A stretch of 30,927 bases of DNA from the sequence record NC_049394.1; one strand, written 5' to 3'. The translations under genes and the position numbers were made by a program. Every line of letters begins with the position of its first letter. Within the stretch, counting starts at the first letter, position 1. This DNA comes from Escherichia phage ESSI2_ev129. Shown piece after piece: positions 3,178 to 27,929 of this stretch. Under the pieces are notes generated by a model, which saw nothing but the letters and a program-made list of their open reading frames with translations, had not been told where the DNA came from and ran no database searches.

Positions 3178-3754
3178 TTCCAGGCACCTCCGGCCACACA
3201 ATTTCTGCCGCATCTTCCGGTTGAATACGATTCAGTAAAACGCGGTATTTTTTCCATGCGGTAAGCAGCAGTGCTTCTTCTTCGGTTGCCATGTCTAAAT
3301 CAACGGCATCCTGCAATGTGGCAATGGCGTCATTGGCCTGTTTAAGCAGGCTTTTCTTTTCGGCGTCTGCCTCGCTGACTAATGCAATTCGCATGGCCTC
3401 CGCATCATCCACCCACGCCTTACCATTCCATTTTTGCAAGGCATTAGCCGGTGCTGACGTGGTTGTCCCTTCCGGGTAAGCGCCTGGCTCGGTGATCACC
3501 AGTTCATTACCGTTTTCTGTATCAAACACCACCTCACCACGGTGATCCTCACGGGAAATCCATCTTTGCTTCTCTGAATCAAAAATCGCCACAAACCCCG
3601 CTTTGATTGCCGGTGGCTTTATCGTGGTGCAGTTAGCTGGCAGTCCGGTATGCGCAGGAATAAAAGCATCACCCGAACCAATAAATTCATTCGTATCGGA
3701 ACGCAGGTTATAAACAGTAACTGTTTGATCGGTTTCACTCATTTTAAAAGTCAT
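3167..3754 (-). CDS. Tail fibre assembly protein (Tfa / P2 gpG-like chaperone)
   Basis: 195 aa immediately downstream of the tail fibre with ATGA start/stop overlap at 3754; acidic C-terminal region (..LLLTAWKKYRVLLNRIQPEDAAEIVWPEVP) typical of the Tfa family. Confidence 0.75.
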   Translation of the reverse strand: MTFKMSETDQTVTVYNLRSDTNEFIGSGDAFIPAHTGLPANCTTIKPPAIKAGFVAIFDSEKQRWISREDHRGEVVFDTENGNELVITEPGAYPEGTTTSAPANALQKWNGKAWVDDAEAMRIALVSEADAEKKSLLKQANDAIATLQDAVDLDMATEEEALLLTAWKKYRVLLNRIQPEDAAEIVWPEVPGNVA

Positions 3755-5328
3755 TATGCGAGTCTCACTATGTAGTTAAATGCAATATTCTTAACGGTCG
3801 TTTCTGCGTTGCCCGACGCGGCGACGGTAATGGTGTGACTGTGTGCGCCAATGGCTACGGTATGAGAGTGAGCGCCAATACCTACGGTGTGATTATGTGC
3901 GCCAATGGCTACGGTGTGCGCGTGGTTTCCCGCCGAACTGGTTGCGGCTCGCCCCTGATCGCTACGTGGTACCCCCCAGTCACTACCACCTGATTGCACA
4001 TTCCCGCCATAACCAATGGTGTGCGTATGCGCTCCCGTGGTATTTGTCGTTTTCGTGCCATAGTCAAACGTAGTCGCCGTTTTAGTGCCGTAATCAAAGG
4101 ATGATGTTGGTTTTGTCCCCAAATCCGTACTGGATGCACTGGCGGTGTGGGCATGGGATTTATTGCCATCATCTTCATAGGAGAGAACTGCGCGACCGTC
4201 TGGTTTCCCTTTGATAGTCTGCCCACGCGCATCAGGAATTACGCCCGATGGATACGCGATTGCCAGTAAAGGATATGCAGCCTTATCAAAAGATTGTCCC
4301 TGCATAATTGCCCACCCTGCCGGTGGGATATCTGTTGACCACGGAAGCGGCACACCAACCGGCAGAACATCACTACGACTTAAAACGGCCAGTTCACCCA
4401 GATCCAGGCTTTTTCTTGCTTTTACCTTGTCGTTAACATCAGCAAGGTTTGCATCCTTACGCAAAAAATCACTGCTGGCCTGCTGTTCTCCCAGGCTACC
4501 TTTTGGCCGTAAATCCGTGATGTTGCCATCCACATCAATGCTGGCCACAGCAAACACATAATGCTGAACCCCGTTCTGAACATAATCAGCAAGATTTGCA
4601 GTCACCGTGATTTTGCTCTGCACATTCCAGACACTGGTCAATGTCCCTGTCCAGCACACATCCAGCCAGACTTTTACCGGCTTTGTCGTCACCGTAATAT
4701 TCTGATTCGCAGCCAGTGACGCACGCAATCCAGCCACATAACCCGTGCCTTTCGTGACAAAAAACTGATTGCCAGTTTTGGCTACCAGATAGCCGTTACC
4801 AAAAAACGCCGCCGCACCATAGATATCCATATTTTCCAGGCGCTGGCGCTCATCCATTCCGGCCATACGCGCAGTAAAATCAATCTGCCAGGTTTCAGCG
4901 GGTGTATTAATCCCGGTTTCCGTCTGTGCGCCGTTGTACTCCATCAGAAACGAGCGGGTCAGCACGTTCCCCTGTTGCCCTTCTTTTGTTTTCAGTTTCT
5001 GCTGTGATGGTGCATGGACAATCATTGCCAGCGTACCGCTGGCCTTATTGAGCAGACCGATCCAGTTAAAACTGAAATCACCCACATCTGCGCCCAGCAC
5101 TACGGAATAGACCACCCCGTTTTCATTCACCACACCGGTGCGGGTAACAGCCTGCCGGTGAACAATCTGTGCTGTCGGTGGCAACGCTTCATTGCGGTCA
5201 ACAGGTGTATCCGGGTTTAAATCCGGCACACTGGCAAAAACAAATTCGTCCAGTAGTACCGGTTCACCCGTTGCGCCCTGCTGTGCTTTCCAGTTTTCAA
5301 ACGCCAGCGTGATGGCTGTCTGTGACAT
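3754..5328 (-). CDS. Tail fibre protein with tail-collar domain and C-terminal His-x-His repeat tip
   Basis: 524 aa. Strong Shine-Dalgarno AAGGAGG upstream of ATG 5326-5328. Collar-like segment [33 protein letters not shown]-terminal repeats FDYGTKT x2 and (H-x-H-T-V/I) x5 (..[34 protein letters not shown]..), encoded by three 27-bp DNA repeats at 3841-3921. Confidence 0.8.
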
Positions 5329-5338
5329 AAAAACCTCC

Positions 5339-5926
5339 TTACAAACTCGCGCTGAATGTTGCGCTGCGGGCTTCCGTCCCTGCTAACGTCGCCGGGTAAA
5401 CCACATATTCCCCCTGATCCCACCCGGCCCGGATAACCAGGCTTTCAGACGTGATCACCTCAAACTGATAACGGCGGCATGTTCGCCCGTACTGGCGGAT
5501 TATCTGGATCAGCAGCTGCGTGTTGTCTGCAATCTGGCTGTCTGTAACCCGAACCAGAATCACATCCCAGTCGATATCCGGTTGCCGTTCTAACAGTTCC
5601 ACATAACCAATTCCCAGCCGTTCAAAGATATTGATAAACCCCTCTACTGAACCGGCATCCCGCGCATTCACGAAGGCAAAAGCCACGCGTTTGCGGAACA
5701 GGGTCAACGGTTCACCATCAAAGCGGGTGATATCCCGGTCATAAGCCAGCAGGTTCAGTAATGCCGGTGTACACGTCAGCGGATCAAACTGGTTCACTGG
5801 CCAGGTAACCCAGCCGTAAACCTCAGCCCAGAACCGCCGCGCCGTTTTCAGTAATTTCCCCGGTTCGCCTTTATTCATCCAGGAAGGCAAGACCATCCCG
5901 GCCAGCTTTTTCATGAACTCATTCAT
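5339..5926 (-). CDS. Baseplate/tail protein, P2 gpI-like
   Basis: 195 aa. Segment [25 protein letters not shown] resembles the conserved gpI motif (W.P.TCP..LLP.LA...D.WD). Position between the J-like gene and the fibre matches the P2 J-I-H order. Confidence 0.6.
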
Positions 5927-7103
5927 TCTCGATATTCACCGTCAGTGATTTCAGACGCGGCACGCTCAGTTCACTGGTAATGTCTCCCAGCGAAAATGTC
6001 AGTGATTCCGTCTGCGCAAAAGTTTTATGAATTTCCCGCCCCAGTTGCGAAAAGGAAAACCGCGAATATGGCCACGTCTTTCTGACGTCATAATCAGCAT
6101 TTTCACGAAAGGCACAGCGGATCATATTTTCAATGCCGCCTTTCAGCGTTTTCACTTCTTCGTCACTGAAGTTGTTCAGATTTTTGACATAAACCGTGAC
6201 GGCCAGATCGTGAAGCGTTTCCGGCATGGGGTAACACTGCATATCATCACCATGCCCGTGGTGCCCCAGCGTGTTGATATAGTCATTCACTGCATCCACG
6301 AACGGCGCTGATGCCACCCCACTGTCCAGTAATAAAAAGGCGTTGGCTGTTCCTGGCCCCCTCGGTGCTTCATGCTCAAAGAAAATCCGATCGATACTCA
6401 ACCCGGCAACACTGGCGATCATTGAGCGATAAACCGCATCAGTGTGGTAATTCCCCACCAGATTGAACTGATTGCGGCAACGCTCGCGCAGTTCATCATC
6501 ACTTTCCTCGTCAGCCCCCGGCACGGTCAGCCAGTTTTCCTCACTGGCCACGTGGCTGATACCACTGACCGCCACCGGCAGAATGCGGTAATATCCGGGC
6601 GCAAGGTTATATGCGCCCCCGGCGCCAGTGGCTTTCACCGGTAGCAATGCGCTGGCCGCACCGGAAGTGATCACCACATCCTCAGTGGTGGCCAGCTCAT
6701 ACACTCGCCCGTTAATGCGTTCTGTCTGGATAATCGTCCCGGCTTTGACCGTCACAACGGCCTTTGCATCTTCTTTGAAGAACCGAATCACCCCCTGTGC
6801 TGCGCTCGCCGGTTTTGCCGTGACGTTCACCGCCCAGGCCAGCAAACGCAACATGCTCCCACTGGCTGTGGCCACAAACATATTGGCCAGCACGGTTAAC
6901 ACCAGAACGTCTTTAAGCCACATCACCGGGGCGGTCACAATGGCGGTGATTAATCGCCAGAACGGTGACATGCGGGATGTATTGGTGATAATTCCCTCAT
7001 CTGCTGCAATCGCATTGAAGCGTTCCCGCACTTCGGCTTCCGTTACCGGCATACCGCTATCTTTCACCACTTCTTCAAAATCAACCTGCGGTTTTTCCGT
7101 CAT
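5919..7103 (-). CDS. Baseplate J-like protein (gp47/J family, tentative)
   Basis: Track ORF is 5919..7157; start refined to ATG 7101-7103 (MTEKPQ...), which forms an ATGA overlap with the upstream stop at 7100-7102. About 394 aa in the expected baseplate position; family call by position and size only. Confidence 0.5.
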   Translation of the reverse strand: MTEKPQVDFEEVVKDSGMPVTEAEVRERFNAIAADEGIITNTSRMSPFWRLITAIVTAPVMWLKDVLVLTVLANMFVATASGSMLRLLAWAVNVTAKPASAAQGVIRFFKEDAKAVVTVKAGTIIQTERINGRVYELATTEDVVITSGAASALLPVKATGAGGAYNLAPGYYRILPVAVSGISHVASEENWLTVPGADEESDDELRERCRNQFNLVGNYHTDAVYRSMIASVAGLSIDRIFFEHEAPRGPGTANAFLLLDSGVASAPFVDAVNDYINTLGHHGHGDDMQCYPMPETLHDLAVTVYVKNLNNFSDEEVKTLKGGIENMIRCAFRENADYDVRKTWPYSRFSFSQLGREIHKTFAQTESLTFSLGDITSELSVPRLKSLTVNIENE

Positions 7104-17296: not shown

Positions 17297-19072
17297 ATGG
17301 CTAAATACTCTGAAGAATTAAAAGGCGTTGTTCGCGCACTTTATCTGCGCCGCTATACGCCAAAGGAAATCGCATCTGAATTAAATCTGCCGAATGCGCG
17401 GATCGTTTACTACTGGGCGGAGAAATACAGCTGGGCGGATTTGCTCAGTTTTGAAAGCACAGAGGAAGCGATTGAACGCCGTTACCAGCTGCTGGCCAGC
17501 CGCGATAACAAAACAGATCTCGACCTAAAAGAAATGGACATGCTCATTGCTCATGCCACGAAACTGCGTGCGCAGAGTAATAAACACAAAGAGAAAATGG
17601 CCAGCGGTCAGAGTTCCGGGCAAGCAGCTGCGCGGGACAACAATGACGACGAACCGCGCAGCAAACGGAAGTACAGGAAAAACGATATTACCTCGCTGAC
17701 GCAGGAGGACTTTGACGCATGGGCTGAGGAACATCTTTTTGAATATCAGAAACACCTGCGCAATAACATTGGCCAGCTTGTAAGGAACATCCTGAAAAGC
17801 CGCCAGATCGGTGCGACCTGGTATTTTGCGTTTGAAGCGTTTGAAAACGCGGTGATGACCGGCGATCCGCAAATCTTTCTGTCAGCGTCAAAGGCTCAGG
17901 CTGAAGTGTTCCGGTCTTACATCGTGAATATTGCAGAGCAGTATTTCGGTATTACGCTGACCGGTAACCCGATCCGCTTAAGCAACGGCGCAGAACTGCG
18001 TTTTCTCTCCACCAACAAAAACACCGCCCAGTCCTACAGTGGCCACCTGTACTGTGACGAATATTTCTGGGTACCAAACTTTGCAAAACTTAACGAAGTG
18101 GCCAGCGCAATGGCCACGCATGACAAGTGGCGTACCACCTATTTTTCAACTCCATCGGCAAAAACGCACCAGGCGTACCCGTTCTGGACGGGCGATGAGT
18201 GGAAACAGGGCAGTAAAAAACGTGCGGCCATTAAGTTTCCTTCCTTTAACGAAATGCGTGACGGCGGGCGACTCTGCCCGGATGGGCAATGGCGCTACGT
18301 CATTACGATGGAAGATGCCATTGCGGGCGGTTTCAACCTGGCGAATATCGAGAAACTTCGCAACCGCTACAACGACGCCACTTTTAACATGCTCTATATG
18401 TGCGTGTTCGTTGACAGCAAAGATTCCGTTTTCAGCTTTTCCGACCTGGAAGCCTGCGGTGTTGAAATCGACACCTGGCAGGATCACAACCCTGATGCAG
18501 CGCGGCCATTCGGTGACAGGCCAGTCTGGGGCGGCTTTGACCCGGCTCGCAGCGGGGATTTGTCCTGTTTTGTCATCATCGCCCCGCCGATGCTCGCCGT
18601 GGAGAAGTTCCGCGTTCTGAAGGTGATTTACTGGAAAGGCATGAACTTCCGGTACCAGGCAAAACAGATCGAGCAGTTGTTCAAAAAATACAACTTCACT
18701 TATCTGGGTGTGGACGTTACCGGCATTGGCCAGGGTGTTTTTGACAACATTCAGCATTTTGCCATGCGCGTGGCCGTCCCTATTCGTTACGACCTGAACA
18801 CCAAAAATAAGCTGGTACTGAAAGCGGTGGACGTGGTGGAAAGCCAGCGTATTGAGTGGGATAAAAATTTGAAAGAGATCGCGGCCAGCTTTATGTCTGT
18901 GCGCCGAACCACCACACAAAGCGGCAACGCCATGACGTTTGTCGCTGACCGCAGCCAGGATACCGGCCACGCAGAGGCATTCTGGGCGATTACCCACGGT
19001 CTGCATAACGAACCCCTTAACTATGAAAACAAACCTAAATCCCGCTGGGGTGTAAGGAAAGAGGCAGCATGA
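17297..19072 (+). CDS. P: Terminase large (ATPase) subunit, P2 gpP-like
   Basis: 591 aa (P2 gpP is about 590 aa); ATG at 17297; divergent from O; stop overlaps the portal start (ATGA at 19069-19072). Confidence 0.85.
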   Translation: MAKYSEELKGVVRALYLRRYTPKEIASELNLPNARIVYYWAEKYSWADLLSFESTEEAIERRYQLLASRDNKTDLDLKEMDMLIAHATKLRAQSNKHKEKMASGQSSGQAAARDNNDDEPRSKRKYRKNDITSLTQEDFDAWAEEHLFEYQKHLRNNIGQLVRNILKSRQIGATWYFAFEAFENAVMTGDPQIFLSASKAQAEVFRSYIVNIAEQYFGITLTGNPIRLSNGAELRFLSTNKNTAQSYSGHLYCDEYFWVPNFAKLNEVASAMATHDKWRTTYFSTPSAKTHQAYPFWTGDEWKQGSKKRAAIKFPSFNEMRDGGRLCPDGQWRYVITMEDAIAGGFNLANIEKLRNRYNDATFNMLYMCVFVDSKDSVFSFSDLEACGVEIDTWQDHNPDAARPFGDRPVWGGFDPARSGDLSCFVIIAPPMLAVEKFRVLKVIYWKGMNFRYQAKQIEQLFKKYNFTYLGVDVTGIGQGVFDNIQHFAMRVAVPIRYDLNTKNKLVLKAVDVVESQRIEWDKNLKEIAASFMSVRRTTTQSGNAMTFVADRSQDTGHAEAFWAITHGLHNEPLNYENKPKSRWGVRKEAA

Positions 19073-20130
19073 GTAAAAAGAAACGCTTTGTTAAGCGCGA
19101 CCAGCGCGGCGACAAATCAAAAAAGATGAGCATTATCACTTTCGGCAAACCTGAACCTGTTCTGACTACCGGCACAGATTACCGTGATATCTGGTACGAC
19201 AATGCAGCCGATCACTTCACCCAGCCGATTGACCGACTGGCACTCGCGCAACTGATTAATCTTAACGGTCAGCACGGCGGCATCATTCACGCCCGTAAAA
19301 ACATGATTGTTTCAGACTACCAGGGGGGCGGGCTTATTCACGACCAACTGGAAGCAGCTGCGTTTGACTATATAACCTTTGGGGATATTGCGATTGCCAA
19401 AATTCGTAACGGCTGGGGTGACGTGATCGCACTTGAACCCTTGCCCGGTCTGTATATTCGCCGCCGCAAAGTCAGAGATAACGCCCTGGATAAGCCTGGT
19501 GACTACGTGGTGTTACAGGAAGGGGAACCGCAGGTATGGCCAGAAGAAGATATTATCTTCATCAAAATGTATGACCCGCAACAGCATATCTACGGACTGC
19601 CGGACTACATCGGCGGTGTGCATTCCGCGTTACTTAACAGTGAAGCGGTCATTTTCCGACGCCGCTATTACCACAACGGTGCGCACACAGGCGGTATTCT
19701 TTATACCCGCGATCCCAGCATGACGGACGAAATGGAGGAAGAAATTGAACAGCAGCTGCGTGACAGCAAAGGGATCGGTAACTTCTCCACCATCCTTGTA
19801 AACATTCCCGGTGGAGACGGCGACGCCATCAAATTCATTGAAATGGGGGATATTTCCGCAAAGGATGAATTTGCCAACATCAAGAACATCAGCGCCCAGG
19901 ACATTCTGAACGCTCACCGTTTCCCTGCCGGCCTCGCCGGTATTGTCCCACAGAACACTGCCGGACTGGGGGATGTTGAAAAGGCTGAACGCATTTACAA
20001 GAAAAGCGAAATAGCCCCCATCCAGCGCCGTTTCATGCTTGCCGTTAACAACGATCCCGAAATACCGGAAAGGCTACACCTTAACTTTGATTTAAGTTAC
20101 ACAGAATCAACGGATAAGGGTGCGGTATGA
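19069..20130 (+). CDS. Q: Portal protein, P2 gpQ-like
   Basis: 353 aa; AAGGAAAGAGG Shine-Dalgarno; translationally coupled to P. Order P-Q, divergent from O-N-M-L, is the P2 head-module layout. Confidence 0.85.
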   Translation: MSKKKRFVKRDQRGDKSKKMSIITFGKPEPVLTTGTDYRDIWYDNAADHFTQPIDRLALAQLINLNGQHGGIIHARKNMIVSDYQGGGLIHDQLEAAAFDYITFGDIAIAKIRNGWGDVIALEPLPGLYIRRRKVRDNALDKPGDYVVLQEGEPQVWPEEDIIFIKMYDPQQHIYGLPDYIGGVHSALLNSEAVIFRRRYYHNGAHTGGILYTRDPSMTDEMEEEIEQQLRDSKGIGNFSTILVNIPGGDGDAIKFIEMGDISAKDEFANIKNISAQDILNAHRFPAGLAGIVPQNTAGLGDVEKAERIYKKSEIAPIQRRFMLAVNNDPEIPERLHLNFDLSYTESTDKGAV

Positions 20131-20450
20131 GGCGAAACAGGCTAAAATCCAGGCATCATTTAACAGCTGGAGCATGGAATATGCGAGTTCTGAAAATCGA
20201 ATGCCCGGAATGCGGCTCAAAGGCTGTTATTCGTAAAACGAACAGAAAGCACCGGCAGATTGCTGATATTTACTGCGCCTGTTCAGATGTTGAGTGTGGC
20301 CATACGTTTGTTATGAATCTGACGTTCTCCCACACTCTTAGCCCCAGCGCTAAAACGGGTGATGCGATGGTGCAAAAAATACTGAATGCACTTTCACCCG
20401 ATCAGCGCCAGATGGCATTAGACCTACTGAAAGCGACTCCCGCCGCCTGA
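20127..20450 (+). CDS. Ogr/Delta-family zinc-finger late transcription activator
   Basis: Cys pattern CPEC-x19-YCACSDVECGHTF matches Ogr/Delta/186-B (CPxC...Y.C.C....C..TF). ATG 20127 overlaps the portal stop (ATGA); alternative start ATG 20181 with GGAG upstream gives an 89-aa product. Confidence 0.75.
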   Translation: MRRNRLKSRHHLTAGAWNMRVLKIECPECGSKAVIRKTNRKHRQIADIYCACSDVECGHTFVMNLTFSHTLSPSAKTGDAMVQKILNALSPDQRQMALDLLKATPAA

Positions 20451-20636
20451 AATGCCCCCATTACTGGGGGTTTTGTTTTCATACTCATCGAGCTTACTTT
20501 CCAGATCTGAAGTCAGTTCACTCAGCCAGGCAAGTGCTATGTCTTTCTCACAGCCGGTGCAATTACTTTTAGCTATAAGCCTTGTAAACAACGCAATCCG
20601 CTGCAATGCGATAGTTTCCAAAAACAAATCCTGCAC
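20424..20636 (-). CDS. Small ORF downstream of a LexA box (candidate SOS-induced antirepressor, Tum-like role; speculative)
   Basis: Track ORF is 20424..20684, but its ATG lies on the LexA box; preferred start GTG 20634-20636 (or ATG 20640-20642) with GGGAGG upstream. About 70 aa; 3' end overlaps the terminator hairpin, so the C-terminus is uncertain. Confidence 0.35.
   Translation of the reverse strand: MQDLFLETIALQRIALFTRLIAKSNCTGCEKDIALAWLSELTSDLESKLDEYENKTPSNGGISGGGSRFQ
20454..20479 (+). terminator. Rho-independent terminator after the P-Q-ogr operon
   Basis: G-CCCCC(20455-20459)-ATTACT-GGGGG(20466-20470) hairpin followed by TTTTGTTTT, 4 nt after the ogr-like stop. Confidence 0.7.
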
Positions 20637-20661
20637 AAGCATCCTCCCAAAAACAGAATAA

Positions 20662-20677
20662 CTGTATATAAACACAG
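20662..20677. promoter_or_regulatory. LexA (SOS) box
   Basis: CTGTATATAAACACAG is CTGT-N8-ACAG with an AT-rich spacer, flanked AA..TA, matching the LexA consensus TACTGTATATATATACAGTA. A TATACT -10-like hexamer overlaps its upstream half on the minus strand. Confidence 0.65.
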
Positions 20678-20757
20678 TATACATTTAAGCACAAAATGTG
20701 AAAGTGCTTTTTCCTGCCATCTACTGACAAATGAATGCCTTTCACATACTTACACCA

Positions 20758-22797
20758 CTACAACCACCCCGGCCACAGTTCCTGTAATGGCTCGTTTTGA
20801 GTCTCTTTAAGCCGCCCGTTGCGGTAAATCAGTGCGCCCTGACCAAATTTCAAACCACTCCCCCGCAGGAGAATGGCTATTTCTTCATCAGAACCATCAA
20901 AACCCCGACTGCGTAATTCCAGTTTTAACCGTCTGCGGGTTCCCCCCTCCGTACAGTTATTGACAGAACTCCAAGGGGCGGCGTTGCCGCCAGAAAAACC
21001 CGCCTCCGCTGGCGCTTCGGCCAGTTTCGCTACCTTCTGCCACTTCACCAAGCGCGTACATACCTCGGAATCTGGAACCAATGGAGAATAGACGCCCTGA
21101 ACACGCTGCACGTCCTCTGCGTATTCGTTTCCCTGTTCCGTAATTTCATAGGCCAGGCGAACAACCAGATCACGGCGGGGAACCAGTGCACCGCCCTGCG
21201 CCTGGGTATATGCAGCCCAGTCCCCGACATCAGCAGCGGCCAGAACCGCATCCATTCTGCGATCTGCCAGTACCTGATCCCGCAAACGACGCAGCTCACG
21301 CCAGACAGTTACCGGCGCACCACCAATCTGTTGAAACTGGCGAATACGCCAGCGTGAAGCCCACGCGGAAACGGACTTAGCCATATCACGCAGATTTTCG
21401 CCGGTTTCTTCGTCCTGCTCACCATCCAGCGCAAAACCATCAATATTTTTTGAAATGTATTTCGCGATGTAGCCCGTGGCCGAACCTTTGGCGGGATCGA
21501 TAGCTTCAACATGAAAACGCGCCTTCAGCGCCTTTTCAGATTGAAGTTCTTCAGAATCGGTAATTCTGGCGTGATAACAAAGAATATCGCGTACCGTGTC
21601 CACGTCCTGCGGACGCATAAAAAGCAACATATGCCAGTGCGGTGTCCCGTCATGGTGAGGCTCAACAACCCGAAACCCAAATACATGGATACCAGCACGC
21701 GAGATCGCTGCACGCGCTTTTGCCCATACGCCGCATAAATAGCGCTGGGTATCCTGCGGCGTACTTCCATCCCATTGCGATACAAAGCCACCTTTGCTGT
21801 GTACCGCATGGAAACGTGATGGTGCGGTGATGGTGTAAAACTCACCGGCCAGCCCTTCTTCATTTGCCATATCTTCAAACCCTCGCATTCTTACCATTAG
21901 CTCACAGCGACGGATCGCCGGATTTGCAACGCTGCGGTGTACCATGCTGTCCAGTGCAATGCGCAGCCCTTCATCATTCAGCAGATCAAACTTTTTAAAG
22001 AACTCCAGATTCCGCTTTTTCTGGTCTATCCATTCACCCAGTGTTTTGCGGGATACATAAGCGCTGGCCGCTTTTTGCACCTGCCCCACCGCGATGGCCA
22101 TGTGTTCGCGCTGCGTATCACGCGCACGTTTAAGACGCAGGTACCACCATTCCGGCGCCATCATGCGCAGTATCCCGGATTCCGCCTTACGCATTTCCAG
22201 TTGGCCTTCATTGGCCTCATGTTCAGCCCAGTACGGCGGCTGGTTATTCAGCATCAGGCAACATGCACAAAGATGTCGGTATGATTCCAGGGTGCGGCGA
22301 TACAGCTCTCTGGCGTCGTCAGTGCCGGAATCAAACTGTTCGGTGAAGTCATAAAGTGACTGGGAAATCCAGCCAGATACCTGGCCAGCCAGTTTTTTAA
22401 GATCAGGACGGTCTAGTGACGGCAAGCGCTCCAGCGACTTACCAAAAGGAAGATCAGCAGCATCAGCGGCCAGCGAGTAACGCGCAGCCACTTTTCGCAG
22501 ACGTGGCAATACACTCCCGCCGATGGTCTGGCGCAGGAATGTATTGGCACGGCGACGCCCGTCACGACCAGCAAAAAGCTTTTCATAGCGACGGCCAAAA
22601 TACCCGGCTAACCAGTCGGGTATCTCATGCAGGTACCGGGATCGCCATTCATAATCCTGCGGGTTTACAGCCCACAGGCGGCGTTCTGTGATTGTCGCGT
22701 CTGCCGGTGTACCAGGCGCAAAGGTTTCACGCCGCCAGGCATCGACGGCGTGATGTTGCCCCAGCTCTTGATGAAGGAAATCAGTATGCTCAGGCAT
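20758..22797 (-). CDS. A: Replication initiation protein (P2 gpA-like rolling-circle initiator/nickase)
   Basis: 679 aa; contains the tyrosine active-site-like segment SATGYIAKYISKNIDG characteristic of the gpA family; ATG 22795-22797 overlaps the upstream methyltransferase stop by 8 nt. Confidence 0.85.
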   Translation of the reverse strand: MPEHTDFLHQELGQHHAVDAWRRETFAPGTPADATITERRLWAVNPQDYEWRSRYLHEIPDWLAGYFGRRYEKLFAGRDGRRRANTFLRQTIGGSVLPRLRKVAARYSLAADAADLPFGKSLERLPSLDRPDLKKLAGQVSGWISQSLYDFTEQFDSGTDDARELYRRTLESYRHLCACCLMLNNQPPYWAEHEANEGQLEMRKAESGILRMMAPEWWYLRLKRARDTQREHMAIAVGQVQKAASAYVSRKTLGEWIDQKKRNLEFFKKFDLLNDEGLRIALDSMVHRSVANPAIRRCELMVRMRGFEDMANEEGLAGEFYTITAPSRFHAVHSKGGFVSQWDGSTPQDTQRYLCGVWAKARAAISRAGIHVFGFRVVEPHHDGTPHWHMLLFMRPQDVDTVRDILCYHARITDSEELQSEKALKARFHVEAIDPAKGSATGYIAKYISKNIDGFALDGEQDEETGENLRDMAKSVSAWASRWRIRQFQQIGGAPVTVWRELRRLRDQVLADRRMDAVLAAADVGDWAAYTQAQGGALVPRRDLVVRLAYEITEQGNEYAEDVQRVQGVYSPLVPDSEVCTRLVKWQKVAKLAEAPAEAGFSGGNAAPWSSVNNCTEGGTRRRLKLELRSRGFDGSDEEIAILLRGSGLKFGQGALIYRNGRLKETQNEPLQELWPGWL

Positions 22798-23800
22798 ACT
22801 GTCCCCCCATCAAGTAGGCTTTTATAAAAGCTGTCGCAGCTTCTGCATTCAGGGCGTTGCCATAGGTTCTAATTCGTCCCACTCTGGAGGAAGCCCCATT
22901 AACCAGAGGCTTAAGGCCGGATTTAATTGGCCTCCACTTTCCATCTCTGCACAGAAGCCAGTCAGCATCTTTCCAGAAGCCGTTAACCGCACCGGCCCCG
23001 CTATCTGAGCAACCACATCCAGCCTGTCTATCGACAGCTTGCCATTGCGAATCCTCCCCCCAGAATATCCGCCCTTGTGATCGCTCGCTGTTGGAGTCGG
23101 CCAGCCCGCTAACCTCGCCGCGCCGCCAAGCGTTGTACCTCGCTTCGGATGGTTTGCTGCCGCCCCCTCTCCTGAAATTTGATTGTTGTCCTGTGTAGTT
23201 GGAGTTGGCCACCCTGCAAGTTGAACCGCTGTTTGCAAGTTCAATCCCCCTTGACGGCCTGCATTGCTGGGATGTTTCCATGCATTCGCTGTCGGTGTTG
23301 GCCACCCAGTAAGTTCTGTCTCTGATATTCGGCGCACCGACGCTCGCAGCCGGAAACGCACACGCCCCGAAGGCATAGCCCATTGCTTCCATGTCAGCTT
23401 GTACAAGGTCGATCCAGTCGTTTGCGTGAGCACTCGCAGATTGCTCGCCAAAGATAACGAGAGGGCGGCGCTGCCCGACCAGCCAATGCATGGCGGGCCA
23501 TAAGTGCCGCTCATCAGCAAACCCTTTTCCTTTGCCTGCCGCGCTGAAAGGTTGGCATGGACATGATCCCGACCAGACTGGTTTATCTTCTGGCCATCCA
23601 GCACGGCGCAGGGCATATGACCAAACTCCAATCCCTGCAAAGAAATGGACTTGAGTGAATCCTCGCAAGTCGTCTGGATGGACATCTTCAATACTCCTTT
23701 CATCAACTTCACCGGCCATAATGCGACCGGCAGAAATATGCGTACGCAGTCGCTCTGCCGCAAACGGATCAATTTCGTTGTAATATGCGGAAGGTTTCAT
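22790..23800 (-). CDS. DNA (cytosine-5) methyltransferase, with a two-frame anomaly in its central region
   Basis: This frame carries motif I (FFAGIGVW), motif IV (GSCPCQPFSAAGKG), motifs VII-VIII (EAMGYAFG..GAPNIRDRTYWVA) and a motif-X-like C-terminus (YGNALNAEAATAFIKAYL). ATGA overlap with the Dam stop. A second same-strand frame (22849..23772) holds a triplicated LAGWPTPT module; see findings. Confidence 0.7.
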   Translation of the reverse strand: MKPSAYYNEIDPFAAERLRTHISAGRIMAGEVDERSIEDVHPDDLRGFTQVHFFAGIGVWSYALRRAGWPEDKPVWSGSCPCQPFSAAGKGKGFADERHLWPAMHWLVGQRRPLVIFGEQSASAHANDWIDLVQADMEAMGYAFGACAFPAASVGAPNIRDRTYWVANTDSECMETSQQCRPSRGIELANSGSTCRVANSNYTGQQSNFRRGGGSKPSEARYNAWRRGEVSGLADSNSERSQGRIFWGEDSQWQAVDRQAGCGCSDSGAGAVNGFWKDADWLLCRDGKWRPIKSGLKPLVNGASSRVGRIRTYGNALNAEAATAFIKAYLMGGQYA

Positions 23801-24648
23801 GCGCTGACCTCAACCGGAACAGGCCATTTAAGAATCAACTCTGCCGCCATTTTCGGGCTTGCAGCTGCCGCACCAACGCTACGCGGTGCATTCACCTGAA
23901 CAGCGTCAAACCCTGCATACAGGTAATGCACCATTTCCAAATCGCTGTTTGACGCGACCACCTTAATCCCACGTTCTGCCAGGCGTCGTAGCTTACGCGC
24001 CAACCGACCCTGATCCAGGTGCGAAAAACCGCGCTCATGGTAAGCGGTGAAATTGTCGGTATCAGTCAGATAAGGCGGATCACAGTAAACAACGTCACTC
24101 CCGCCCCGAACCAAATCGAGCGTTTCTGAATAGTGGGCAGTAATGAACGTTGCACGCTTCGCTTTTTCGGCAAAGGCGCGTATTTCATTGGCAGGGAAAT
24201 AAGGCTTCTTGTACTTACCGAACGGGACATTGAACTGACCACGGCGATTATACCGGCACAGGCCATTGAAGCAGTGCCGGTTCAGATACAGGAAACGCGC
24301 AGCATTTTCAATGGATTCAGAACCGGATTTACCGGACAGGTTGAAGGCATCCCGCACTGCGTAATAGAAAACTGCACGGTTTTCTTCATCGCCTAACGAA
24401 CCGGCAGTAAACAGGATCTCCAGCTCATTCAGCAGCGCATCAGTGTGATACGCCATCGCCTTATAAAGATTAACCAGATCAGGATTCACATCTGCGATCA
24501 GATACTCGTCATAATCCGTATTCATCATGACGGCGCAGGAACCTGCGAACGGTTCAACCAGGCGTTTACCTTCTGGAAGGTGCGGACGCAGCTTAGGCAT
24601 AAGGCGGGCTTTGCTGCCCACCCATTTAAGCGGAGTTTTAACGGCCAT
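23797..24648 (-). CDS. dam: DNA adenine (N6) methyltransferase, Dam family
   Basis: 283 aa. N-terminal [19 protein letters not shown] (AdoMet motif) and catalytic VYCDPPYL (DPPY). GGAGG Shine-Dalgarno 6 nt before ATG 24646-24648. Confidence 0.85.
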
Positions 24649-27794: not shown

Positions 27795-27929
27795 AGTGCA
27801 AGATTCCTCGTTTGGAAGTTAACCGTGGCTAGCGGTGTTAAAAGGTGAACAACCTGTTTTGGAATGTTCGCCTGCAAAATAACTTTCCAAATGCGAAGTG
27901 TCAACCAATAACTTTCCCAAGGCGGAATT
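27795..27929. promoter_or_regulatory. Immunity switch region between apl and cI, with candidate operator repeats
   Basis: 135-bp gap between divergent apl/cox-like and cI starts. Four copies of a 9-11-bp motif: TTGGAAGTT (27812-27820), TTGGAATGTT (27859-27868) and, inverted, AACTTTCCAA (27881-27890) and AACTTTCCCAA (27910-27920). Confidence 0.5.

Follow-up and report, generated by a model that had tools for sequence, protein, structure and literature searches.

The stretch of DNA analysed here (the window; 30,927 nucleotides of Escherichia phage ESSI2_ev129, NC_049394.1) is about 97% identical (over query) to Escherichia phages ESSI2_ev015 and ESSI2_ev040, both Peduoviridae genomes. It encodes homologs of gpO, gpP, gpQ and gpA, which identifies the source as a P2-family phage, and we consider this phage to be, in all likelihood, a temperate member of the ESSI-2-like (Quadragintavirus-type) group. 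The part of the window treated below contains the following features:

17171–17176, minus strand: −10-like AATAAT, presumed late promoter of the O...tail operon; (A/G)ATTATT(G/A)C in relatives
17219–17241, no strand: candidate operator, a perfect dyad TTCGG-N13-CCGAA centred at 17230, in the divergent O/P late control region
17284–17289, plus strand: −10-like CATAAT, presumed P-Q(-ogr) late promoter, with no −35 match; GGCATAAT conserved across relatives
17297–19072, plus strand: terminase large subunit (gpP); Pfam Terminase_6N, Terminase_6C, Terminase_5
19069–20130, plus strand: portal protein (gpQ); Pfam Phage_portal, 99.7% identity to the ESSI2_ev015 portal
20120–20125, plus strand: candidate −35 region GTGCGG within the last portal codons, with an invariant TG
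20127–20180, plus strand: optional 18-codon N-terminal extension MRRNRLKSRHHLTAGAWN, an open frame with its ATG on the portal stop
20141–20148, plus strand: candidate extended −10 G-n-TAAAAT (TAAAAT at 20143–20148), a conserved block
20169–20172, plus strand: Shine-Dalgarno GGAG for the 20181 start, GGA nearly invariant at −12 to −10
20181–20450, plus strand: Ogr/Delta-type zinc-finger late activator (ogr), conserved 89-aa form; Pfam PF04606, PHROG 603, onset of period-3 variation
20424–20642, minus strand: convergent 72-aa open reading frame, candidate Tum/TumA-like SOS antirepressor; PHROG 698
20454–20479, plus strand: intrinsic terminator, a 7-bp GC-rich stem plus TTTGTTTT, end of the ogr transcript and of P-Q read-through
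20661–20676, no strand: LexA box CTGTATATAAACACAG, upstream of the 72-aa open reading frame
20758–22797, minus strand: replication initiator gpA, convergent with ogr; Pfam Phage_GPA, E=1e-104

The open reading frame at 20127–20450 (plus strand, 107 aa) is present as the initial annotation had described it, including the quoted residues CPEC...YCACSDVECGHTF, and its assignment to the Ogr/Delta zinc-finger family is borne out by two profile matches and the zinc motif. Residues 25–71 of the long form match Pfam Ogr_Delta (PF04606) over model positions 1–47 of 47, with E=9.2e-20 and 70.8 bits at a gathering score of 26.3, and the product also matches PHROG 603 ("transcriptional regulator", E=2e-40). 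In the numbering of the 89-aa form, the zinc motif reads C8-X2-C11-X22-C34-X4-C39, with the finger encoded at about 20202–20297. The motif C-X2-C-X22-C-X4-C is that of P2 Ogr (PMC3931495), and the four cysteines are invariant in an alignment that takes in P2 Ogr. A single small domain of 89 aa, encoded by a P2-family phage, likewise fits the Ogr/Delta family. A PDB sequence search returned no solved structure of any relative.

The closest counterparts are the activators of ESSI-2, K139 (Orf13), phiO18P, Smhb1 and HP1/HP2, which are zinc-finger proteins of the same type, 83–92 aa long and starting with MR(V). The HP1/K139-type activators share the C-terminal pattern HTLSPSAKT...L.PEQRQ..L with the window protein; identity to it is 48–94% for enterobacterial, Vibrio and Aeromonas members and 36% for HP2. 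We regard the product as a C4 zinc-finger protein of the HP1/K139 subclade and as the probable activator of late transcription. The remark that it is longer than P2 Ogr is right insofar as P2 Ogr has 72 aa, but 83–91 aa is the norm for the clade, with a conserved C-terminal segment, 89 aa falls within that norm, and the figure of 107 aa depends on an unproven start. The B protein of coliphage 186 and Delta of satellite P4, the sole phage-encoded late activators of these elements (PMC3931495), belong to the same Pfam family; P4 Delta differs from the single-domain window protein in being a tandem duplication of about 166 aa.

Nine of the ten related phages inspected have the gene order terminase, portal, ogr, terminator and convergent rep, which recurs in 38/53 bacterial loci. 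A post-portal ogr is present in Quadragintavirus, Seongnamvirus, Evevirus, Tresduoquattuorvirus and Irrigatiovirus, as well as in Longwoodvirus K139, Hpunavirus HP2, Bielevirus phiO18P and Phitrevirus phi3, and in HP1/K139-type phages the gene converges on the rep region as it does here. K139 differs in that an additional gene, orf14, separates Q from orf13. An activator gene after the portal gene has been described for K139 and Smhb1 (PMC8537503). The 3' end of the P-Q late operon is therefore the standard place of ogr in the HP1/K139 subclade, a described subgroup, and the suggestion that the location is unusual is not upheld. The contrast drawn with P2 is nevertheless accurate, since P2 ogr adjoins attP/int and the gene here adjoins rep. 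For this phage group, gene, family and map position are already known from RefSeq and from publications. HP1, HP2 and Pseudomonas phi3 differ from the window in that their Ogr homolog, though present, is unannotated.

A single intrinsic terminator closes the unit, with a stem-loop at 20454–20471 followed by TTTGTTTT. No other convincing plus-strand terminator was found from 17297 to 20450, so none separates Q from ogr, and transcripts from the P promoter should reach ogr by read-through for this reason. The idea that read-through from an Ogr-dependent P-Q operon would create a positive feedback loop, which needs a separate promoter to start it, is sound. As a special arrangement, however, it does not stand, because in P2, too, ogr closes a late operon and the two have a common terminator, labelled "for ogr transcript and F operon" in the P2 record.

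The gene was said to have two possible starts, an ATGA overlap with the portal stop and an ATG 54 nt later with its own GGAG, and both exist. The first ATG (20127–20129) overlaps the portal stop TGA (20128–20130), and the in-frame ATG at 20181 lies 8 nt from the GGAG at 20169–20172 and yields 89 aa. Public annotations of the gene disagree between 89 and 106 or 107 aa. Judged by the pattern of conservation, which was measured as column entropy over 31 unique relatives, ogr is most likely translated from 20181. The coding sequence from this ATG is very strongly constrained (0.29/0.09/1.11), the conserved, well-spaced GGAG serves it, and the distant homologs in K139 and phiO18P have the corresponding MR(V) as their N-terminus, in K139 even with orf14 intervening. 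In HP2 and phi3, too, the homolog begins at the matching position.

A 107-aa protein, made from the 20127 ATG by termination-reinitiation coupling on P-Q mRNA, could still be the true product, or a second one made late, and we see this as a possibility of distinctly lower probability. Upstream of 20181 the ogr frame has no stop in 38/38 unique relatives (the other frames have 97 and 15), a count that overstates the evidence because the relatives are not independent; only 26% of shuffled sequences stay open. In 43/45 loci an upstream start codon shares bases with the portal stop or directly adjoins it, as ATGA, TAATG or TGATG, and within the main groups the distance from portal stop to ATG changes by multiples of three (50, 53, 56). 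The extension peptide is always basic (net charge +2 to +7) and shows a weak third-position excess of variation (0.90/0.81/1.24), and the long form is annotated by PGAP and in some RefSeq phage records. Against these points, the amino acids of the extension are poorly conserved, and the conserved columns of the spacer are nucleotide motifs that lack periodicity. Since the 20127 ATG lies between the proposed −35 and −10 elements, the 107-aa form could be encoded only by read-through transcripts. It is conceivable, if rather doubtful, that both isoforms are made, 89 aa from the promoter embedded in the portal end and 107 aa with a basic tail from P-Q read-through; if so, the activator of the feedback phase would differ chemically from that of the start-up phase.

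The requirement for a separate start-up promoter had been argued correctly, but the statement that it was not identified no longer applies, as ogr appears to have a small conserved candidate promoter of its own at 20120–20148, with the extended −10 placed in the 50-nt spacer after the portal gene. In 41/41 portal-linked enterobacterial loci checked, G-n-TAAAAT stands at exactly −38 from the 20181 ATG, and this placement of the hexamer holds at portal-stop distances of 35, 46, 50 or 53 nt. Among the 31 unique relatives, the invariant columns are TG at −60/−59, G at −40, TAAAAT at −38 to −33, A at −26 and GGAG at −12 to −9; within TAAAAT only position −34 varies slightly, and the flanking columns are variable. 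These invariant blocks are non-periodic; variation with period 3 sets in only from the 20181 ATG onwards. One base of the invariant TG (20121–20122) is the wobble base of a Gly codon that varies at its other two positions, and the TG lies 17 nt upstream of the −10 element. Column −39, which is variable, is consistent with the "n" of an extended −10, and transcription is predicted to start at about A20155.

The annotated promoter of P2 ogr (TTGTTT-17 nt-TAAAAT) has the same −10 hexamer and spacer, and its −10 lies 34 nt from the ATG, compared with 32 nt here. Moreover, promoter-like sequence precedes ogr in every clade relative inspected, including TTGATATAAT in HP2 and the annotated P13 in K139. 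The candidate −35 matches the sigma-70 consensus poorly (2/6), and a simple sigma-70 scan of 16900–21000 gave no match, so that the promoter may be very weak or need an extra factor. The null scan is in itself uninformative, as its thresholds would also miss the P2 ogr promoter, whose −35 matches at 3/6.

The poor −35, the negative scan and the lack of a terminator between Q and ogr would all agree with a gene that lacks its own promoter and depends solely on activator-dependent P-Q read-through, started by basal leakage of the late promoter. We find this quite unlikely in view of the constant distance of G-n-TAAAAT and the upstream TG from the ATG in diverged relatives, of the identity in −10 hexamer and spacing to a P2 promoter that would itself fail the scan, and of the corresponding sequences that precede the HP2 and K139 genes. 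In the open upstream frame, the TAAAAT block additionally reads as L/V/I-K codons, and its conservation could stem partly from coding. That it is purely coding, or some other signal related to packaging or cos (P2 cos lies just beyond Q), is very improbable: the position of the block follows the ogr ATG, not the portal stop, HP1-type cos is reported beside attP and not after the portal gene (PMC2771037), and the variable "n", the final T of TAAAAT, invariant although it opens a variable codon (S, Y, F or L), and the TAAACT of one relative (L058), which retains T1, A2 and T6, fit a −10 element better than a peptide.

Coliphage 186 B is directly repressed by CI. When the motif of the switch region at 27811–27920 was used as a query, no CI-operator-like site (TTTGGAAnGTT) was found near ogr, and there is accordingly no evidence for direct CI repression in the style of 186, from which the window differs in this respect. 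In relatives from Vibrio and Aeromonas, K139 and phiO18P among them, and in the Aliivibrio relatives, a LexA box immediately precedes the activator gene; the window has none in this place. Nothing identified in our analysis accounts for silencing of ogr in the lysogen.

At the other end of the operon, the perfect dyad at 17219–17241 is flanked by two −10-like hexamers, each 56.5 bp from its centre, ATTATT at 17171–17176 mirroring the hexamer at 17284–17289. The dyad is kept as TTCGG(A/T)TA...TA(A/T)CCGAA in the O/P control region of all relatives, including K139, HP2 and the E. coli members. Tail-only clusters of Xenorhabdus that encode an Ogr homolog have the dyad too, ahead of their first tail gene, and the spacing from dyad to GCAATAAT there is the same as in the window. 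As is typical of Ogr/Delta-type late promoters, the presumed ones here have no −35 match and have an upstream dyad-symmetric element; the dyad centre is predicted at about −66 rather than −55. The window contains no second exact copy, and matches with up to two mismatches are no commoner than expected by chance. A single dyad points to one late control region, as in K139, where the annotation shows only a divergent pair of late promoters and a single long late operon. TGT-N12-ACA, the late element of P2, 186 and P4, was rejected as the operator: its three matches in the window are all intragenic (7.6 expected), and it is absent from intergenic regions, including the O/P control region. Given its conservation and symmetric placement, the activator probably binds the candidate dyad.

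Taken together, we favour as the likely scheme that the presumed weak sigma-70 promoter of ogr (20120–20125/20141–20148) would start expression, giving RNA from about 20155 and translation from 20181. Late in infection, ogr would also be reached by read-through from the activator-dependent P promoter, and both kinds of transcript would end at 20454–20479. Ogr, bound to TTCGG-N13-CCGAA midway between the divergent promoters, would switch on the P-Q and O-to-tail operons, and activation of P-Q would in turn reinforce Ogr synthesis.

By analogy, expression of ogr in the window is most likely the P2 design moved to another late operon. P2 ogr is reportedly transcribed from Pogr at intermediate times and later co-transcribed with FETUD (the P2 transcription facts used here derive from the P2 RefSeq annotation and from background literature). 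Each gene is the last of a late operon and uses that operon's terminator, and the gap before it holds an annotated promoter in P2 and a candidate one here. The host operon differs, being the tail operon F-E-T-U-D by attP/int in P2 and the packaging operon P-Q by rep in the window. The late promoters of P2 are four and have TGT-N12-ACA; the window has one bidirectional region with TTCGG-N13-CCGAA. The proteins share the zinc finger but are only 22–28% identical, and the window protein has about 17 extra C-terminal residues.

The observation behind the initial annotation is confirmed, but its claim of anything unusual in position, feedback layout or length is not supported, and the locus has little importance beyond annotation hygiene. 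What the analysis offers is a concrete, if candidate, promoter and start-codon call for a gene with conflicting public annotations. In addition, TTCGG-N13-CCGAA is a candidate operator for HP1/K139-type activators, unlike the textbook TGT-N12-ACA of P2, and also marks tail-only, tailocin-like clusters in Xenorhabdus.

The sequence around ogr adds some context outside the gene proper. An Rfam scan of 19900–20800 gave a chance-level match only. The convergent 72-aa open reading frame on the minus strand (20424–20642) overlaps the final 27 nt of ogr; K139 orf12 was considered as its counterpart and rejected, as a comparison gave no similarity. Its homolog is Fels-2 STM2728, which is located between gpA and a DinI/TumB-like gene. 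About 30 relatives match the window in having a LexA box in this location, at +461 to +497 counted from the ogr ATG.

The window is a temperate phage genome of the P2 family (Peduoviridae). Its 3.9 kb around ogr share 96.7% identity with Escherichia phages ESSI2_ev015 and ESSI2_ev040 (genus Quadragintavirus), with Cronobacter phage ESSI-2 more distantly related; the two coliphages come from infant faecal samples (PMC6969025).

Gene order around ogr
Start about 17135, minus strand: capsid scaffold gpO
17297-19072, plus strand: terminase large subunit gpP
19069-20130, plus strand: portal gpQ
20127-20450, plus strand: ogr ORF
20454-20471: stem-loop of an intrinsic terminator, plus TTTGTTTT, directly after ogr
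20642-20424, minus strand: 72-aa ORF, convergent with ogr
22797-20758, minus strand: replication initiator gpA

The Ogr/Delta zinc-finger identity proposed in the initial annotation was borne out by Pfam Ogr_Delta (E=9e-20, far over threshold) and PHROG 603 (E=2e-40). Both of its start codons are present, the first ATG (20127) overlapping the portal stop as ATGA and the second, in-frame ATG (20181) lying 8 nt past a GGAG. The four cysteines (C8-X2-C11-X22-C34-X4-C39, short-form numbering) reproduce the C-X2-C-X22-C-X4-C zinc motif described for P2 Ogr (PMC3931495); an alignment with P2 Ogr among its members shows no change at any of them. The length, which had seemed unusual, is ordinary among clade members (83-92 aa), whose conserved C-terminal segment (HTLSPSAKT...L.PEQRQ..L) P2 Ogr lacks. 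In 28 complete E. coli genomes, the RefSeq label is 'ogr/Delta-like zinc finger family protein', adjoining the portal gene. One contig assigned to a 'MAG: Bacillota bacterium' bin (JAEWTL010000126.1) encodes Ogr at 100% and the portal at 99% identity, and is almost certainly a misbinned contig from an enterobacterial prophage; a re-search did not confirm a Promethearchaeota MAG match (28% identity, E=1e-4).

The map position had likewise been taken as odd, but it is the standard place within a described subgroup. A homolog lies directly 3' of the portal gene, converging on the replication region, in all inspected relatives except the Burkholderia Tigrvirus group, those with the portal-linked homolog including ESSI2_ev015, ESSI-2, ev239, Yersinia YenM_324, Salmonella SI7, Vibrio K139, Haemophilus HP2, Aeromonas phiO18P and Pseudomonas phi3. 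Unlike the window, Burkholderia phiE202 has a P2-like arrangement. Among 53 bacterial genome loci with a close relative, the portal gene ended 35-56 nt upstream of the homolog in 38 and lay within about 2 kb in two more. In HP1-type phages, cos adjoins attP rather than following the portal gene (PMC2771037). We conclude that ogr, correctly spotted at the outset, is an ordinary gene in an ordinary place for this phage lineage. In HP2, an intact Ogr/Delta-like ORF (3477/3498-3755 of its locus), preceded by TTGATATAAT, directly follows the portal gene and is missing from the record's annotation; unannotated tblastn matches occupy the same place in HP1 (U24159 10447-10635) and phi3 (about 3492-3755 of the locus).

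The initial annotation had also raised a positive feedback loop that, were ogr expressed by read-through only, would need a separate start-up promoter. The reasoning is sound, but the design is no oddity. The P2 record annotates one terminator 'for ogr transcript and F operon', so P2 ogr, too, closes an Ogr-dependent late operon and has a small promoter of its own in front of it. P2 ogr is reported to be transcribed from Pogr at an intermediate time and, later on, together with FETUD (Birkeland et al. 1991, J Bacteriol 173:6927). As no convincing terminator was found between P, Q and ogr in the window, the two-input scheme of P2 (own promoter plus read-through) would be expected, with only the late operon carrying ogr differing. 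In our analysis, the regulatory puzzle is the known P2 solution, and the start-up promoter now has a conserved candidate.

This candidate emerged from an alignment of the portal-ogr junction in 31 unique relatives without an indel in this stretch. From the 20181 ATG on, the columns vary with a strict codon period (mean entropy 0.29, 0.09 and 1.11 at codon positions 1, 2 and 3), whereas over the 54 nt 5' of it conservation is blockwise and non-periodic.

Conserved blocks at the junction (positions counted upstream from the 20181 ATG)
-60/-59: TG
Portal stop
-40: G
-38 to -33: TAAAAT, with slight variation at -34 only
-26: A
-12 to -9: GGAG

Read as a sigma-70 promoter, these blocks would supply a -35 element xTGxxx (20120-20125), a 17-nt spacer and an extended -10 element G-n-TAAAAT (20141-20148), in which n is the most variable column of the region; transcription would likely start at the conserved purine 20155, 7 nt downstream of the -10 element. 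At -60, the invariant T occupies the third position of a portal Gly codon that varies at its first two, the likewise invariant last T of TAAAAT begins a codon for S, Y, F or L, and TAAAAT lies exactly at -38 from the ATG in 41 of 41 portal-linked enterobacterial loci checked, even with the portal stop 35, 46 or 53 nt away rather than 50. These features point to nucleotide-level rather than protein-level constraint. The annotated P2 ogr promoter (TTGTTT-17 nt-TAAAAT), ending 34 nt from its ATG compared with 32 nt in the window, has an identical -10 hexamer, spacing and geometry. A generic promoter scan gave no match at the candidate site, and P2's ogr promoter would escape it too; no CI-operator-like site was found near ogr.

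A longer isoform may also be made, by translational coupling from read-through mRNA only. The 18 upstream codons are open in all 38 unique relatives (against 97 and 15 stops in the two alternative frames), the frame stays open in only 26% of shuffled sequences, and 43 of 45 loci have a start codon overlapping or abutting the portal stop, in three configurations; the extension peptide is basic in all cases, with a weak excess of third-position variation. However, codon-type periodicity sets in at the 20181 ATG, the GGAG serves that start, the K139 and phiO18P homologs begin MR(V), and the transcript proposed from the candidate promoter could not include the 20127 ATG. These features mark the 89-aa form as the conserved product, and we consider the longer isoform rather unlikely. 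Annotated lengths disagree: 89 aa (ESSI2_ev015, ev239), 106 aa (ESSI-2, YenM_324) and 107 aa (E. coli 300709).

None of the window's control regions contains the P2 consensus TGT-N12-ACA. The O/P intergenic region (161 bp) holds one perfect dyad, TTCGG-N13-CCGAA (17219-17241), its single occurrence in the window, exactly equidistant (56.5 bp) from the two conserved hexamers on either side.

-10-like hexamers flanking the dyad
17284-17289: CATAAT, without a -35 match
17176-17171, opposite strand: AATAAT, without a -35 match

The dyad is kept in all relatives, K139 and HP2 included; the K139 annotation, too, shows no late promoters but these two divergent ones, and a single long late operon. In several Xenorhabdus genomes, the Ogr homolog adjoins host genes rather than a portal gene, and the same dyad, about 42 nt ahead of a GCAATAAT hexamer, is found 5' of a gpR tail gene. 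Persistence of dyad and Ogr homolog in loci with no portal independently supports an activator target, and we infer that TTCGG-N13-CCGAA is likely bound by the Ogr protein. Ogr neighbours in these Xenorhabdus loci (L049-L052, L057) are an MFS transporter, a GNAT and two Vap-like genes; L049 carries Ogr at 3501-3770, the dyad at 5527-5550 and a gpR-like tail-completion gene at 5597-6379. The loci look like tail-only, tailocin-type clusters that have kept activator and operator. In the window, just 7 nt separate the conserved CATAAT from the terminase ATG (17297), and a Shine-Dalgarno sequence is absent from 17284-17299, so the P-Q mRNA may be leaderless in this group; the leader is longer in the Xenorhabdus relatives.

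No LexA box was found upstream of ogr in the window, whereas one lies 54-73 nt upstream of the homolog in Vibrio, Aliivibrio and Aeromonas relatives (K139, about 3938-3953; phiO18P, about 3431-3446; also relative loci L061 and L062), which suggests that the SOS response directly controls the late activator in that branch. A second LexA box of K139 lies near its orf12 promoter. In the window, a near-consensus LexA box (20661-20676, CTGTATATAAACACAG), found at the matching relative position in about 30 relatives, precedes the convergent 72-aa ORF, which overlaps the last 27 nt of ogr and passes through its terminator hairpin. This ORF is homologous to Fels-2 STM2728, which sits between gpA and a DinI/TumB-like gene. 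Given the LexA box and this homology and placement, it probably encodes an SOS antirepressor of the Tum/TumA type; RNA made from it would be antisense to ogr.

Flanked by rep on one side and a Dam-type methylase gene (23797-24648) on the other is a C-5 cytosine methyltransferase gene (22790-23800, minus strand). ESSI2_ev015 has one methyltransferase only at this place, and its nucleotide similarity to the window ends at ~22758; the C-5 gene looks like swapped or inserted cargo.
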